The notes beneath the pieces were generated by a model. That model was not told the origin of the DNA. It did not search any database and saw only the letters and a list, made by a program, of their open reading frames with translations. This document shows, piece by piece, positions 1-64,000 of a stretch of 64,000 bases of DNA (the stretch's first letter is position 1; the number at the start of each line of letters is the position of its first letter). The position numbers and the translations under genes are program-made. This DNA comes from Candidatus Bathyarchaeia archaeon (GTDB lineage: Archaea > Thermoproteota > Bathyarchaeia > Bathyarchaeales > Bathycorpusculaceae): positions 224,001 to 288,000 of the forward strand of contig JBEKOM010000001.1 of assembly GCA_049521795.1 (NCBI GenBank), given 5' to 3'.

Positions 1-358
1 TAATGTCAGGATCGACGCCTGATGCTGAACCTTGAATGCCCACGAGCATTACCAGTTTTCTTTTTCCAGGCTGGTGCCCTCGTACGGCGATGTGAAAGCG
101 AAGGGTTTGCGACTGGTCTCTCGTATGGAAGAAAATGGGCAAGGTGAAGTTTTGGGCTATAAGATTTGATCCGATAGCTTGTCCGTGGAGTTGCACGATT
201 TCGCCGTTCGCTTGGTAGGGAAAGAGAACTTGGCTTATGCCCGTGATTAATAGTGGGAAAAGTATTCCGCAGATTAAGAGCGAAACCAGTGCTAATCCTA
301 TAATAGGTTTGAGGTTCTTTAGGTTCCATTTTTCTTTTTGTTCTGTTGTCATAGTCAT
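1..358 (-). CDS. kdpC: K+-transporting ATPase subunit C (3'-truncated by window edge; carries a 25-aa in-frame insertion)
   Basis: Not in the ORF track because there is no stop in the window. Manual translation from ATG 358: MTMTTEQKEKWNLKNLKPIIGLALVSLLICGILFPLLITGISQVLFPYQANGEIVQLHGQAIGSNLIAQNFTLPIFFHTR...SASGVDPDI. Has KdpC hallmarks (FPYQANG, SASGxDPDI) and lies directly after kdpB. Confidence 0.93.
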   Translation of the reverse strand, partial: MTMTTEQKEKWNLKNLKPIIGLALVSLLICGILFPLLITGISQVLFPYQANGEIVQLHGQAIGSNLIAQNFTLPIFFHTRDQSQTLRFHIAVRGHQPGKRKLVMLVGIQGSASGVDPDI

Positions 359-364
359 TCTTTC

Positions 365-2584
365 CTAAACGTGAAAGACTCCCACAAGGAGCAAATCTAT
401 CAGTTTGATTCCTATGAATGGCACGATGACGCCGCCTACACCGTAAATTAAGGTGTTTTTAAGAAAAAGCGTCATGGTGCTGGTAGGTTTAAAAGCGATT
501 CCCCGCATTGCCAGAGGAATCAAGAGCGGTATGATAATAGCATTGAATAGTAAAGCTGACAAGACTGCACTTTTCAAGCCAAGCTGCAGAACGTTCAAAG
601 CTTGCAGTTGCGGTATGGCAGTGCCGAACAGTACAGGCATGATAGTGAAGTATTTGGCGACATCATTTGCTATACTGAAAGCAGTAACCGCGCCTCGAGT
701 CATGAGCAACTGTTTGCCAAGCATGACGACATCGATTATTTTTGCGGGATTTGATTCAAGGTCAACCATGTTCGCCGCTTCCTTAGCAGCCTCGGTGCCT
801 GAATTCATCGCCAGACCGACGTCAGCAACAGAGAGTGCCGGGGCATCATTTGTTCCATCGCCTATCATTGCGACAATTCTACTTTCAGCCTGCTCCTTCT
901 TGGCGATGTTGAACTTGTCCTCCGGCTTGGCCTGCGCTACATATTCTTCGATTCCAACCTCAGATGCAATACTTTTTGCAGTGAGTGGTTGATCTCCAGT
1001 TATCATGACTGGGCGTATTCCCATGACCTTAAGAGCCTGAATTTTTTCTTTTATGCCTTGTTTGAGGACGTCTTTTAATCTGACTATTCCGATGGCTTCA
1101 CGGTTTCTTGCGATAGCTATAGGCGTTTCACCCTCTGCAGATATTCCCTCAACAATGAGGTCATAGTTTGGAGGGACGAAAGTTACAGTTTTCTTGATGG
1201 CTTCTGGAGCCCCTTTGACGATTTCAATTTCAGGTTCGATTCTTGCGGCAAATTCTTGTTCGGATACTGTTGAGGATTTTCTTCGGATTCTCAGTCGGCC
1301 TCGTCCTGATTTGTCACCTTTAGGAAGCCTTAGGCCCATGTGGGTTATTTTCACTCCGCTCGTGCGGGTGCTGGCTGAGAACGGGTAAGTTTCAGAAAGT
1401 GCAAGAGAGTTCAGTTCTTTTGGCACGAAACCTTTCTCATATGCTAGGCCTAGTATGCTGCGCCCTTCAGGGGTATCGTCGTTCCATGAGGATAGAAACG
1501 CTGCTTCCCCTACGTCTTCTTCTGATCTACCCTCAAACGGCAAAAACTCTATTGCCTGTCTGTTGCCAACAGTGATGGTGCCTGTCTTGTCCAGAAGAAC
1601 AACATCTGCGTCACCTGCGGTTTCTATGGCTTTGCCTGACTTGGCAATTATCAAGTGTTTGTACAATCGGGACATTCCTGAAAGCCCAATTGCAGGCAAT
1701 AGGGCCCCTATGGTTGTGGGAAGAAGGCAAACGTAGAGCGCGATAAGCACGGAGAGGTCAGCGCCCAGACCCAGCGTGACCGACATGCCTAGCAAAGCAA
1801 CTGTAATGATAGTGAAAATGGCCGTTAACCCAATCAACACGATAGTTATTGCAATTTCGTTGGGCGTCTTTGGTCTCTTAGAAGATTCAACCAGCTTTAT
1901 CATTTGGTCAATGAAGGTCTCTCCAGGGTTCGTCGTAACCTTCGCCGTTAAACTATCGCTTACCACTCGCGATCCACCGATTAGCGAGTCCCCAGGCGCT
2001 TTCCGAACTGGGGCTGATTCACCCGTGAAAAGCGACTCGTCAACCATGGCAATTCCCTCAAGTACATCTGCGTCTAAGGGAACAATGTCACCTTTTTCAA
2101 TCAGGATACGGTCGTCTTTTCTGAGCTCAGTTGATTTTACTGCTACTATCTTCCTTGTCCATTCTTCCGTTACAATTTTCTTGCTGGACACCTCGATTTC
2201 CAACTTCCGTAAGGCGCCAGCTGTACTTTTTGCCTGTTGCTCGGCAAGAGCGTCGGAGAGTGTGCTGAACCAAACTGTAATGAGGAGAATTGCGGCAACT
2301 TCAACGTAAAAGGTTTGCAGGTCGGAACTGGCTATCGGCCCGAAAGCCTGTGGAACAATTGCCATTGCCACAACAATGAAGAACGTGATTTCAACGATCA
2401 GCATCACTGGATTTTTGACCAGTGATTTGGGGTTCAAACGAACTACTGAATCGACTAGCACTTTTCTAGAGAAAGCTGACCTCAATCCTCCACGGGCTGA
2501 TTCGTTGCTTTTTGTTGGTGCCAAAGTTTTCTTGTCATCAGAAGCCATTCTGTAACCTCCTGAAGAATGATGAAATTGGTCCAA
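365..2584 (-). CDS. kdpB: K+-transporting P-type ATPase subunit B
   Basis: DKTGTIT, TGESAP, MIGDGTNDAPAL, LLPTTIG and TRGAVTAFSIANDVAKYF motifs; true start is probably ATG 2548. Confidence 0.97.
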   Translation of the reverse strand: MDQFHHSSGGYRMASDDKKTLAPTKSNESARGGLRSAFSRKVLVDSVVRLNPKSLVKNPVMLIVEITFFIVVAMAIVPQAFGPIASSDLQTFYVEVAAILLITVWFSTLSDALAEQQAKSTAGALRKLEIEVSSKKIVTEEWTRKIVAVKSTELRKDDRILIEKGDIVPLDADVLEGIAMVDESLFTGESAPVRKAPGDSLIGGSRVVSDSLTAKVTTNPGETFIDQMIKLVESSKRPKTPNEIAITIVLIGLTAIFTIITVALLGMSVTLGLGADLSVLIALYVCLLPTTIGALLPAIGLSGMSRLYKHLIIAKSGKAIETAGDADVVLLDKTGTITVGNRQAIEFLPFEGRSEEDVGEAAFLSSWNDDTPEGRSILGLAYEKGFVPKELNSLALSETYPFSASTRTSGVKITHMGLRLPKGDKSGRGRLRIRRKSSTVSEQEFAARIEPEIEIVKGAPEAIKKTVTFVPPNYDLIVEGISAEGETPIAIARNREAIGIVRLKDVLKQGIKEKIQALKVMGIRPVMITGDQPLTAKSIASEVGIEEYVAQAKPEDKFNIAKKEQAESRIVAMIGDGTNDAPALSVADVGLAMNSGTEAAKEAANMVDLESNPAKIIDVVMLGKQLLMTRGAVTAFSIANDVAKYFTIMPVLFGTAIPQLQALNVLQLGLKSAVLSALLFNAIIIPLLIPLAMRGIAFKPTSTMTLFLKNTLIYGVGGVIVPFIGIKLIDLLLVGVFHV

Positions 2585-4193
2585 GCGCCAAGAACGGGAA
2601 GAACGTCAATACTACGAGTATGATGATGCTGCCGACAAGAACTATTGTGAATATTGCGCTATCGGTTTTGAGACCTGTGGTGCCGCCTCGTCTTCGCCCG
2701 ATCATGGAGCCTGACAGTGCAAGCAGGATTGCGATTGGAGCGTATCGTCCTATGAGCATGACGATACCAGTGGCTATGTTAAAGAAAGGGGTGTTTGCTG
2801 AGGCGCCTAGGAAATCGGAACCGTTGTTCGCCGCCGCTGATGTGAATTCGTACAGGATTTGCGTGTAACCCACAGAGTTTCCACCTACCCCAATGGCTGC
2901 CGCTGCGCCCGAAGCATACGCCATTACCGTGGGAATTAGGATTATGATGGGGTGGATTAGGAAAGTCACCATGACAAGCTTTACGTCACGGCCAGTGATC
3001 TTGATTCCTAAGTACTCTGGGGTTCTTCCAGACATTAGCCCGACGATGAATACGGTGATTATGATGTACATCACCATGTACATCAGTCCCACGCCTTTTC
3101 CGCCTGGAATCGACTGAATGAACATTCCCATTAAGCCAGAAGTTATAACCAGAGGATGCATGCCTGCGAGCGCAGAGTTAACGGATCCAGTTGTGGCAGC
3201 GGTCGTAATCACAGTGTAGAAATTTGACATGAAGCCTCCGAACCTCGTTTCTATGCCAGGAGCGACCAGAGGGATATTTGGGGCAAAAGCTATGACGAGG
3301 TTAATTCCGACAAGAATGTACGCACCCCACAAAAGGGGTCGAGCCTCTCTCTTTTTACCCAGTAATTCTCCGAATACGAAGATGAGTGCTGTGGGAAGAA
3401 GAAGCATCAAGGCTATCATAAATATGTTCGAGTAGGGCGACGGGTTCATGAGCGGGTAAGCGGCGTTGGCGCCGTAGAATCCTCCGCCGTTCGTACCCAA
3501 TTGCATTATTGAATCAAGAGAAGCAACGGGTCCGACGAGGATTGATTGTGTTGTACCTTGCAACGTTGTTACTGCTGTGGAAGCGTTAAGAGTCTGTGGG
3601 ACACCCATGACCACGAAGACAACCGAGGCTATGAGGCACAGCGGCAACAGTATTCTGGTTATGGTTCTGACGAAGTCTACGTGGAAGTTTCCCACGTTTT
3701 TAGAGCCGACAATGAATCCCCGTATGAATGCTACACCCATGCATATTCCGGTTGCTGCTGAGATCCATTGTAGAAATTGGATGGCGGTCATCTGGCTAAA
3801 TATGGAAAGTGTTGCCTCTCCGCTGTAGTGCTGAAGGTTAGTGTTTGTTGCAAACGATATTACGGTGTGGAAGGCTAGGTCCCAACTTAGACCTGGGAAG
3901 CCCAGAGGGTTAAGAGGCAACTTATCTTGAAAGACCAGTATTAGAAAAGCGATAACCATCTGTGCAACGTTAAGCAGTAAGCCGGCAAGAAAGTACTGTT
4001 TCCAACCCATCGGATGCTCTGGATCTATGCTGCATATTTTGTAAATAAAATTCTCAACAGGATTTAGGACTATGTCCAGACGGCTTGGCGCCCGCTTATA
4101 GACCCTAACAAGGTAAGGTGCTATGAGTTTCGCTATAAGTATGGTTGTCCCAAGTATGAGGACGACTGATATAGCTTGAATTGCATCGATCAA
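2538..4193 (-). CDS. kdpA: K+-transporting ATPase subunit A
   Basis: SFATNTNLQHYSGE, LGTNGGGF, GRTPEYLG and SAAANNGS motifs. Confidence 0.97.
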   Translation of the reverse strand: MIDAIQAISVVLILGTTILIAKLIAPYLVRVYKRAPSRLDIVLNPVENFIYKICSIDPEHPMGWKQYFLAGLLLNVAQMVIAFLILVFQDKLPLNPLGFPGLSWDLAFHTVISFATNTNLQHYSGEATLSIFSQMTAIQFLQWISAATGICMGVAFIRGFIVGSKNVGNFHVDFVRTITRILLPLCLIASVVFVVMGVPQTLNASTAVTTLQGTTQSILVGPVASLDSIMQLGTNGGGFYGANAAYPLMNPSPYSNIFMIALMLLLPTALIFVFGELLGKKREARPLLWGAYILVGINLVIAFAPNIPLVAPGIETRFGGFMSNFYTVITTAATTGSVNSALAGMHPLVITSGLMGMFIQSIPGGKGVGLMYMVMYIIITVFIVGLMSGRTPEYLGIKITGRDVKLVMVTFLIHPIIILIPTVMAYASGAAAAIGVGGNSVGYTQILYEFTSAAANNGSDFLGASANTPFFNIATGIVMLIGRYAPIAILLALSGSMIGRRRGGTTGLKTDSAIFTIVLVGSIIILVVLTFFPFLALGPISSFFRRLQNGF

Positions 4194-5527: not shown

Positions 5528-5797
5528 CTACTGACGTGAGCGGGGCCGAGGTCCTTTGTGTGTCTTAAGAATGATTGAGCTTACAGTGCTCTTGACACCT
5601 TTAATCTTCATCACCTTGTTCTTGAGAATGTCCCTGAACTCCTCAATGTCAGACGCTGAAAACAGAGTCACAATGTCAAACTCGCCCGTAACTTCGAAAA
5701 GTTCTTCGAGATTATCAAGCTTGGAAAGAGCTGCCACTACCCTGTCCATTTCTGCCGATTCTACGAAGATGTCTATGAAGGCGAGAAGTCTTGGCAA
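5528..5797 (-). CDS. Stand-alone Lrp/AsnC ligand-binding (RAM) domain protein
   Basis: EVTGEFDIV...KIKGVKSTVS pattern with no HTH. Confidence 0.85.
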   Translation of the reverse strand: MPRLLAFIDIFVESAEMDRVVAALSKLDNLEELFEVTGEFDIVTLFSASDIEEFRDILKNKVMKIKGVKSTVSSIILKTHKGPRPRSRQ

Positions 5798-62704: not shown

Positions 62705-64000
62705 CTACTTCATGTCAATGGGCAGGTTCTTTCCAAAGAATGGAAACTTCTTTCTGCGCCGCATCGTCTTAAGCATTCGGCGCATCATCACATACTGCTT
62801 CAGAAGCTCTTTTACCTCTTTTTCGTTGGTGCCTGAACCCTTTGCCACACGCTTCGTTCTCGAAGCATTAAAAATCTTTGGGTTATCCCTCTCCTCAGGC
62901 CTCATCGACTGAATCATGACGCGCCACTTTTCCAAACGCCCTTCAGCCATGTTAACCATGTCGTCAGGAATATTGTAAGACATTCCCGGAATCATCTTCA
63001 AAAGTTTCTTGAAGGTGCCCATGCCCTTCAAAGCTTCGAATTGTTCATACATGTCAGTCAACGTGAATTTGCCGCTCAGGATGGCCTTGGCCTTCTTATC
63101 TGGAACAGATATCTCCGCTTCACGCACTTTGTCCAGAAGGGTCTCTAAGTCGCCCATTCCCAAGAGTCTACCAACAAAACGGGAAGGCACAAAAGCCTCT
63201 ATGTCCTCGGTTTTTTCGCCGGTTCCGACGAATTTTATAGGGGCCCCTGTTGCAGCAACGGCGGAGAGAGCTCCTCCGCCCCTAGCAGACCCGTCCAGTT
63301 TAGTGACCATGATAGAGCCGATGGGCGTTGCCTCGTTGAAAGCCTTTGCCTGAGCTAATGCCTGCTGACCTATCGTTCCGTCGATCACAAGCATGACTTC
63401 ATCTGGCTTGATGCTCTTTTCAAGCATCTTCATCTCTTTGATCAGTTCTTGTTCCTCCTTGTGACGACCGGATGTGTCAACGATGATCACGTCCTTCTCG
63501 CCGAACAGCTTTAGGCCCTCATTCACCACTTTGATGGAATCCTTCGCCTTCACATCGCCGTACGAGGGCACGTTTATCCTGTTTGCGAGCTGTTGGAGCT
63601 GTGCAAAGGCCCCAGGCCGAAAAGTGTCCCCGCAGACAAGAGCTGGCTTCAGCCCCCTCTTCTGAAAATATCTCGCAAGCTTGGCCGCCGCGGTTGTTTT
63701 CCCTGAACCTTGAATGCCCACGAGCATCACTAATTTTCTTTTTCCAGGCTCAACCTTCAGCGGCACCGGCTTATCGCCTAGGAAGCGCGTCAACTCTTCA
63801 TAGACAACTTTTATGACGTGTTCGCGTCTAGAAATGCCTGGAGGAACCTTTTCCTTCAAAGCCCTTTCTTCTATTCGTTTAGAGATGCCAAGTACAAGCT
63901 GAACGTTCACGTCAGCCTGAAGCAGTGCTCTCTGGATGTCTCGAACAAGCTCTTTAACGGTAGCTTCATCCACGACCGAAGCTCTGAACACTTTCTTGAG
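62705..64000 (-). CDS. srp54: Signal recognition particle protein SRP54 (5' end outside window)
   Basis: GIQGSGKTT, DTSGRH, TKLDGSARGGG and M domain. Confidence 0.97.
   Translation of the reverse strand, partial: LKKVFRASVVDEATVKELVRDIQRALLQADVNVQLVLGISKRIEERALKEKVPPGISRREHVIKVVYEELTRFLGDKPVPLKVEPGKRKLVMLVGIQGSGKTTAAAKLARYFQKRGLKPALVCGDTFRPGAFAQLQQLANRINVPSYGDVKAKDSIKVVNEGLKLFGEKDVIIVDTSGRHKEEQELIKEMKMLEKSIKPDEVMLVIDGTIGQQALAQAKAFNEATPIGSIMVTKLDGSARGGGALSAVAATGAPIKFVGTGEKTEDIEAFVPSRFVGRLLGMGDLETLLDKVREAEISVPDKKAKAILSGKFTLTDMYEQFEALKGMGTFKKLLKMIPGMSYNIPDDMVNMAEGRLEKWRVMIQSMRPEERDNPKIFNASRTKRVAKGSGTNEKEVKELLKQYVMMRRMLKTMRRRKKFPFFGKNLPIDMK

Follow-up and report, generated by a model that had tools for sequence, protein, structure and literature searches.

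An in-frame insertion in a Bathyarchaeia kdpC gene composed of two copied pieces of srp54, one of them inverted

How did part of srp54 come to lie inside kdpC, when the two genes are some 64 kb apart on one chromosome, is it genuinely present there, and why has it been kept? This question is raised by the window (the whole stretch of DNA that was analysed, 64,000 nucleotides), which is G000:C1:224001-288000 and lies in the interior of the 790-kb contig C1; the insert is not located at a contig end. The source genome, G000, is a metagenome-type assembly of 2.44 Mb in 69 contigs with a completeness of 98.75% and a contamination of 4.37%. The named genomes with the closest relatives of its KdpC are metagenome-assembled Bathyarchaeia or Bathyarchaeota from peat and soil habitats. 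The main contigs of G000 have a GC content of 0.48, in contrast to small contigs of 2.5-7 kb (C21, C22, C30, C32, C33, C41, C44, C61 and others) with a GC content of 0.60-0.65, and these small contigs are probably binning contamination.

The acceptor gene is kdpC, which encodes the KdpC subunit of the KdpFABC K+ pump. The gene continues past the start of the window to G000:C1:223807 and encodes 183 aa in total. Its product scored 132.9 bits against the KdpC profile (cut-off 24.1) in two matched stretches, one on each side of the insert, and matched the E. coli KdpC of solved KdpFABC structures (E 1.5e-18). The kdpA-kdpB-kdpC operon is intact, with kdpC as its last gene and kdpB directly upstream of it (Table 1). 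Two further features of the operon were noted. The longest kdpB ORF, of 739 aa from a TTG start, has an N-terminal extension and shares 47 nt with the end of kdpA (window 2538-2584); the real start is probably further in. The operon is also flanked by a pair of 128-nt stretches with 83.6% identity (G000:C1:223501-223628 and window 5646-5773), one in the gene just downstream of kdpC, which encodes an 87-aa protein with an Lrp/AsnC ligand-binding domain, and the other in a small ORF beyond kdpA; these probably represent paralogous small regulators.

Table 1. Positions of the kdp genes, the insertion, its donor segments, the end-joining genes and the contigs that span the insertion (window positions unless another reference is named).
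Feature	Location	Strand	Size	Evidence or remarks
kdpC, N-terminal 119 codons	1..358	-		ORF list; Pfam KdpC PF02669, E 1.5e-38
In-frame insertion	29..106 (or 27-104, equally valid)	-	78 nt	DNA alignment with G001, G010 and G002
Piece 1, copy of srp54 63703-63750, same orientation	25..72			45/48; srp54 frame (PGKRKLVMLVGIQG)
Single base g between the pieces	73..73			direct sequence reading
Piece 2, reverse-complement copy of srp54 63541-63571	74..104			30/31
kdpB, P-type ATPase subunit, intact	365..2584	-		E1-E2_ATPase and Hydrolase domains
kdpA, intact	2538..4193	-		Pfam KdpA 610.6 bits, profile positions 2-546 of 548
srp54, ORF leaves the window at its end	62705..64000	-		Pfam SRP54_N, SRP54 (GTPase), SRP_SPB
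Donor segment 1	63703..63750	-		resident srp54 codons around EPGKRKLVMLVGIQGS; gene intact there
Donor segment 2	63541..63571	-		resident srp54 codons VPSYGDVKAK
LigD-type primase-polymerase (Prim-Pol)	C5 operon		288 aa	286.6 bits
Ku	C5 operon		281 aa	139.2 bits
ATP-dependent ligase fused to LigD 3'-phosphoesterase	C5 operon		464 aa	
Run X1 contig	L001 2608-3308		701 nt	0 differences; depth 25.3
Run X2 contig	L001 2881-3224		344 nt	0 differences; depth 9.2
Run X4 contig	L001 2684-3140		457 nt	12 differences, no gaps; depth 6.9

The srp54 matches are based on a blastn search of the 1 kb at the site (C1:223501-224500) against the entire 2.44-Mb genome. This search returned both of the matches that the sequence-only reading of this DNA had described, piece 1 on the same strand as srp54 (E 5.6e-13) and piece 2 on the opposite strand (E 1.3e-7), and no further match of the insert in the genome except 16-nt chance hits. 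Measured against KdpC orthologues of the same genus, the insertion is 78 nt or 26 codons long (TLRFHIAVRGHQPGKRKLVMLVGIQG), one codon more than the 25 counted in that reading; the reading frame is kept, as had been claimed, and there are no stop codons. On the plus strand the order is native kdpC, piece 1 (srp54 63703/63707-63750), g73, piece 2 (srp54 63571 to 63541) and native kdpC again. The srp54 frame is preserved in piece 1, whose translation covers the initial half of the P-loop region of SRP54, and piece 2 is read antisense in kdpC as (T)LRFHIAVRGH. At position 73 both srp54 templates predict a c, and the g changes an srp54 Glu codon to Gln; it is either an untemplated base or a later substitution. 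All four mismatches between the insert and the resident srp54 proved synonymous when compared codon by codon, again as claimed: they fall in V88 (GTG/GTA), L87 (TTA/CTG, two changes) and K148 (AAG/AAA). The resident srp54 is full-length, with the N, GTPase and M domains all present. Because the gene is intact, the insert arose by copying and not by cut-and-paste. The two donor segments are separated by 131 nt and both lie inside 210 nt of srp54.

The outer junctions of the insertion are ambiguous by 2 nt, because some relatives have TCA (Ser) and others ACA (Thr) as the flanking codon. If this codon read TCA before the insertion, the latter occupies 29-106, with a 4-nt microhomology (ctga, window 25-28, common to piece 1 and the native kdpC flank) and two unexplained bases (gt). 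If it was ACA, which is found at this codon in L105 (DNA) and in P0003 (Thr, at the protein level), the insertion occupies 27-104 with a 2-nt microhomology and zero unexplained outer bases, and all 78 nt are accounted for by the two srp54 pieces plus one internal base. The microhomologies that had been reported at the ends of the insert are thus present as 2-4 nt at the piece-1 junction, and are reduced to 0-2 nt at the outer junction of piece 2. The internal joint has no microhomology and one stray base. In alignment with orthologues, kdpC lost zero bases at the insertion, nothing was duplicated and the flanks are contiguous. The native site in G001 is a (CAGTCA)x2 mini-repeat encoding QSQS. 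An insert with a genomic template, an intact donor, two pieces in opposite orientations from within 210 nt of one locus, short microhomology at its junctions (2-4 and 0-2 nt) and a stray base carries the signature of a templated insertion made in error-prone repair of a break.

To establish the insert as genuine DNA, contigs from independent assembly of public runs were compared over L001:2400-3800, where the L001 coordinate is the window position plus 3000 and the insert is at 3029-3106. Contigs from runs X1, X2 and X4, which represent three study codes, all cross the full insert with kdpC on both sides (Table 1), that from X4 reaching just 34 nt past the far junction. The depths of these contigs equal those of neighbouring kdpB contigs. 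The sole same-strain contig of run X3 ends at L001:2993, short of the insert, and no insert-skipping contig at same-species identity was found among the contigs of the four runs. Since G000 may itself derive from the X1 or X2 sample, strictly independent support comes mainly from X4, a soil metagenome with a different study code and year. The 12 differences in 457 nt of the X4 contig indicate that a strain diverged by ~2.6% carries the same scar. The X4 run also has an insert-less kdpC that matches the G001 type, which indicates a second species in that run. Contig ends in G000 overlap by up to 119 nt, longer than either piece, and this points to k-mer graph assembly of short reads. The longest exact stretch between the insert and the resident srp54 is 25 nt, with no common 31-mer, so that a k-mer graph could not have misjoined kdpC and srp54. 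The sequence-only reading had regarded a chimera as a serious alternative; with contigs of three runs crossing the insert, one of them from a diverged strain, the insertion is real and not a chimera of assembly or amplification.

We then considered how widely the insertion is distributed. KdpC was present in 4 of the 41 genomes of the order that were sampled, G000 included. A comparison of KdpC orthologues had been proposed in the sequence-only reading, and in it the insert stretch was exactly missing from the same genus: for G001, G010 and both copies of G002 the KdpC match splits at query residues 85/111 with adjacent coordinates, and the DNA alignment of the orthologues (G001, G010, G002) has a clean 78-nt gap. 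A collection of 5.8 billion proteins gave 2806 KdpC matches at E <= 1e-20. Among the best 120 of these 2806, only the protein of G000 itself (in a 181 aa form) carries the insert, and the others are 150-172 aa long. We also gathered 160 related loci from genome and metagenome collections, of which 142 had both anchor motifs and 18 were unmeasurable. The linker was equivalent to 30-36 aa in 141 of the 142 measurable loci, the exception being L107. These comparisons indicate that the insertion is specific to the lineage of G000.

The allele from which the insert was copied was studied by comparing its 79 bases with the srp54 genes of nine genomes of the genus. The insert and the resident srp54 share an A (in CCTTGAATG) and a C (in CCTTCGC) that are absent from G001 and G002. 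At window 55 the insert has G, as do G001 and G002, and the resident srp54 has A, the resident gene having changed after the copying. The C of the insert at window 53 is found in none of the nine srp54 genes compared, and the two remaining sites at which insert and resident differ are ambiguous in polarity. The insert, the resident srp54 and the G001 srp54 are mutually four differences apart over 79 nt; over a 401-nt stretch, srp54 of G000 and G001 is 95% identical. Since the insert shares derived states with the resident gene, it was copied from an allele of this lineage, either an older one or a sister. An ancestral or close-relative srp54 allele had been proposed earlier, and the two shared states and the synonymous-only differences bear this out. 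The pattern of alleles fits an event after the split from G001 and before the X4 strain diverged, with the lineage's own ancestral allele as the donor, and a separate sister lineage could also have supplied it.

These features are best explained, in a reading that we consider probable, by a break whose repair through end joining included brief copying from srp54, primed by microhomology. A chromosomal break would have occurred within kdpC, at the (CAGTCA)x2 repeat, and would have been repaired by end joining in place of faithful recombination. Prior to sealing, stretches of srp54, ~64 kb distant on the same chromosome, would have been copied from priming sites of 2-4 nt of microhomology. One copied stretch, of 44-48 nt, would have retained its original orientation, and the other, of 31 nt and from 131 nt further along srp54, would have been inverted. 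Each broken end may have primed once on the same srp54 strand, with the extended ends then joined, or a single growing end may have changed strands, which would give the same product. The stray base would be the mark of the internal joint, and the copy would have been taken from a sister allele or from srp54 as it once was in this lineage. The enzymes most likely to have carried this out are those of the Ku / LigD-polymerase / ligase-phosphoesterase operon of G000 itself. The earlier suggestion of templated or illegitimate repair agrees with the srp54-derived anatomy of the insert; as for the repair itself, we infer the break, the mode of copying and the enzymes from the anatomy of the junctions together with the end-joining operon.

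Compact end-joining operons are uncommon in archaea. That of G000 is located at G000:C5:41155-44209 (L196:5155-8209), adjoins alaS and encodes the three proteins given in Table 1. Contig C5 is 104 kb in length with a GC content of 0.485, close to that of C1 (0.483). Ku was found in 8 of the 11 genomes of the genus, G000 and the single-contig G001 among them, and in only 2 of 30 other sampled genomes of the order.

A random 78-nt insert is stop-free in ~29% of cases, (61/64)^26. The length of the loop at the insert site varies among relatives by 0, 2, 4 or 6 residues, and E. coli KdpC has ~50 extra residues between the aligned blocks at the insert point. The insert would have persisted because it is in frame, stop-free and in a KdpC loop of naturally variable length. 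The gene remains under purifying selection, as dN/dS between G000 and G001 is 0.175 for kdpC vs 0.139 for kdpB. Compared with the outgroup G002 copy of KdpC, the proteins of G000, G001 and G010 have 50, 42 and 45 differences, respectively, and the small excess on the G000 lineage gives no clear sign of relaxed constraint. In the same pair of genomes (G000 vs G001) we noted that dS of kdpC is 0.485, ~2x that of the adjacent C-terminal part of kdpB (0.225), and that rates or histories are uneven across kdpC, kdpB and srp54. An AlphaFold2 model of the 183-aa KdpC, made with 37 sequences, had a mean pLDDT of 56.9 and ~32 over residues 78-116. Since the insert holds half a P-loop without the Walker A Lys-Thr, nucleotide binding is not expected of it, as predicted from its sequence. 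The insert most likely forms a tolerated, passive, unstructured surface loop.

Two other close KdpC homologues were found to have insertions near this site. In a related species (L107/P0017), kdpC has a different in-frame insertion of 39 nt (13 aa) at L107:2746-2784, 6 nt upstream of the site. No donor for it was found in G000 or G001, by short blastn in the fetched loci or G000, or in the 11 genomes of the genus, where all matches had E >= 0.04, which is chance level. In the protein P0094 (164 aa), 9 extra residues separate NFTL from PIFF at ~10 codons upstream of the G000 insert, and this peptide is encoded by none of the fetched loci. The alignment of P0094 took in 36 of the 119 other homologues among the matches listed, including all four of at least 164 aa; two of those four have their extra length solely at the C-terminus. 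Thus, three unrelated insertions (26, 13 and 9 aa) fall within ~12 of 157 codons. This cluster may be a fragile site or merely a permissive loop. The stronger suggestion, that the KdpC loop in Ku-bearing Bathyarchaeia is a recurrent break-and-patch site around the hexamer repeat, is one that we consider doubtful.

Several properties of the locus can be held against end joining as the origin of the insert. The donor is 64 kb distant, beyond most templates reported for templated end joining; the outer microhomology of piece 2 is 0-2 nt and there is none at the internal joint; the insert and the srp54 genes of G000 and G001 are equidistant; and replication-based template switching yields the same product. 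In FoSTeS/MMBIR the nascent strand makes jumps guided by microhomology, and a switch to the opposite strand gives inverted segments; the process has been described chiefly for large rearrangements. Serial template switching of this type at a stalled or collapsed fork in kdpC would make a two-ended break and Ku-dependent joining unnecessary. The nascent 3' end would anneal at srp54 by microhomology, copy ~45 nt, switch to the opposite strand ~140-180 nt back, copy 31 nt and return to kdpC. Opposite orientations of two pieces from within 210 nt of one locus are the classic outcome of a strand switch at a fork or D-loop, and both the microhomology at the outer junctions and the retention of every kdpC base agree with it. 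The internal stray base and the weak microhomology at two of the three joints suit end joining better, and the distance of 64 kb to the donor and the presence of an NHEJ operon in G000 also speak against a fork, none of these points being decisive; we regard a replication fork as an unlikely origin, if one to be taken seriously. A different source of the DNA is imaginable as well, namely that srp54 fragments of a close strain or species, taken from the environment or a co-resident cell, were end-joined into a break in kdpC. Capture of heterologous DNA by NHEJ has been described in Sinorhizobium meliloti (PMC6379672), the insert is as far from the resident srp54 (4 of 79 positions) as the G001 srp54 is, and its C at window 53 occurs in 0 of the 9 srp54 genes compared. 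Set against this are the two states common to the insert and the resident gene and absent in the nearest relatives, G001 and G002, and the difference at window 55, which reads as a post-copy change in the resident srp54. An older insertion accounts for all four differences by itself, and in X2 one contig covering piece 1, among those listed, differs at 3 letters, like the resident allele. These points make a foreign donor quite unlikely.

Two readings that concern the nature of the insert rather than its template can be weighed with the same evidence. A chimera of assembly, amplification or library, absent from the DNA of the organism, might be suspected in a metagenome-type assembly of 69 contigs with 4.4% contamination, especially as inverted junctions are typical of amplification chimeras. 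The occurrence of the full insert with both flanks in contigs from three runs and study codes, one of a diverged strain, the want of a common 31-mer with the resident srp54, and an insert that is in frame at the same depth as its flanks leave this idea with almost nothing in its favour. According to a second reading, selection favoured the insert because the SRP54-derived peptide equipped KdpC with something new, for instance a surface for binding or a loop for regulation. Retention of the insert in strains ~2.6% apart, the purifying selection that still acts on kdpC and the insertions of two other lineages in the same loop are what such selection might produce, and retention is predicted equally by a neutral loop insertion. 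One half of the peptide derives from antisense sequence and the other is a truncated P-loop without Lys-Thr, and the three loop insertions are unrelated in sequence. The structure model has no confident fold there (pLDDT ~32, residues 78-116), which is weak evidence as the whole model averages 57. An adaptive origin is therefore very improbable, and we retain end-joining repair of a break, with the insert carried passively, as the preferred explanation.

Other candidates were tried and rejected. In quasi-palindrome switching the template lies no more than tens of bases from the mutation, and this class does not fit a kdpC template 64 kb away (63.6 kb by position); the region also folded no better than random (z +1.02), which bears on any local template switch. 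The same RNA fold (z +1.02), which 172 of 200 shuffles equalled or bettered, led us to reject a bulge-helix-bulge intron. At 26 aa the insert is far under intein size, and its sequence is srp54-derived. Repair from RNA by a reverse transcriptase was rejected as RVT_1 was not found in G000 (98.75% complete), and control genomes had hits. Finally, there is no target-site duplication and there are no terminal repeats of a mobile element, and the only other matches of the insert are the two srp54 segments.

A self-BLAST of G000 was used to look for other events of this kind. It gave 1207 non-self matches, among them 77 short pairs (<=120 nt, >=92% identity); ten of these were at contig ends, which left 67. 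Both copies were within ORFs of >180 aa in only two of the 67, kdpC/srp54 and C2:112985/C3:45254, and by eye the rest gave the impression of promoter-like or intergenic repeat families or of short-ORF sequence. No second ectopic patch of the kdpC/srp54 type was found among the pairs of >=92% identity in this self-BLAST, and so there is no sign of the process being frequent in G000. The C2/C3 pair is a 53-nt near-identical stretch (C2:112985-113035 and C3:45202-45254) in ORF spans of 509 and 460 aa. It resembles a ribosome-binding site and gene start on the other strand, and therefore probably represents paralogous 5' ends and not a patch. We also observed sharp-edged repeat families of 45-75 nt with at least 5 copies, mainly outside long ORFs, with members at G000:C1:375530-375574, C1:491260-491304, C3:119388, C6:35169 and C10:11278, and at C1:644272-644346 and its partners. 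Several other short pairs resemble common promoter boxes (AAAGTTTTAT).

Filler DNA at repaired breaks, either templated or captured, is well documented experimentally in eukaryotes and in a few bacteria, and to our knowledge clean natural examples that have spread in wild populations are rare. Composite insertions made by polymerase theta may contain stray bases as well as pieces in reverse complement. This family-A polymerase of eukaryotes usually finds its templates near the break, and it is not known in archaea. End joining by this polymerase is described as producing templated insertions, with microhomology priming repeated copying in cis or trans ahead of the joining step (PMC4912351). 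The candidate enzymes in the kdpC case are different, being the archaeal LigD-type primase-polymerase or the replicative primase. Strand-displacement synthesis has been described for archaeal NHEJ polymerases (PMC4797286), and the Saccharolobus primase PriSL mediates microhomology end joining (PMC12019639). The microhomology annealing, end extension and terminal base addition described for these enzymes make up a plausible toolkit for the kdpC event, whereas the outcomes described in those studies are small indels and not a copy of tens of bases from a distant gene (PMC4797286, PMC12019639).

The bacterial precedents come closer in product. In Streptomyces ambofaciens, pieces of 30, 42 and 83 bp from the bacterium's own genome were described at I-SceI breaks after Ku-dependent NHEJ (PMC5869714). 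The likeness to kdpC, as far as that account goes, extends to own-genome pieces at a repair scar, microhomologies, fill-in or untemplated bases and the presence of Ku and LigD-type genes (PMC5869714). The breaks described there were induced by a nuclease, in a marker cassette of a laboratory bacterium (PMC5869714). The kdpC scar, in contrast, is natural and shared by diverged archaeal strains, and consists of two pieces of one gene, one inverted, in frame in a conserved gene. In S. meliloti, Ku/LigD NHEJ is described as capturing heterologous DNA at a chromosomal break in either orientation, and the DNA was a supplied cassette of kilobase scale that was ligated (PMC6379672). In kdpC the DNA is two own-lineage pieces of 31-48 nt, and their microhomology suggests copying rather than the simple ligation of such a capture. 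A limited literature search found no natural archaeal case of a templated insertion, the experimental precedents being bacterial and eukaryotic. Overall, the kdpC insert belongs to a mutational class that is already known, of which it is a natural example in an archaeon, and it is not a new system.

The value of this scar lies in its being readable: both genes are conserved, diverged strains share it, and the donor allele is roughly datable by its synonymous differences. It provides a concrete substrate for tests of archaeal end joining. It also shows that a coding sequence can take up and tolerate short fragments of another, essential gene, and that the KdpC loop accepts at least 26 foreign residues. 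If the two other insertions in this loop were also copied from distant genes, end joining that copies from ectopic templates would have supplied archaeal proteins with new loop sequence in nature more than once, and would not be a one-off scar.
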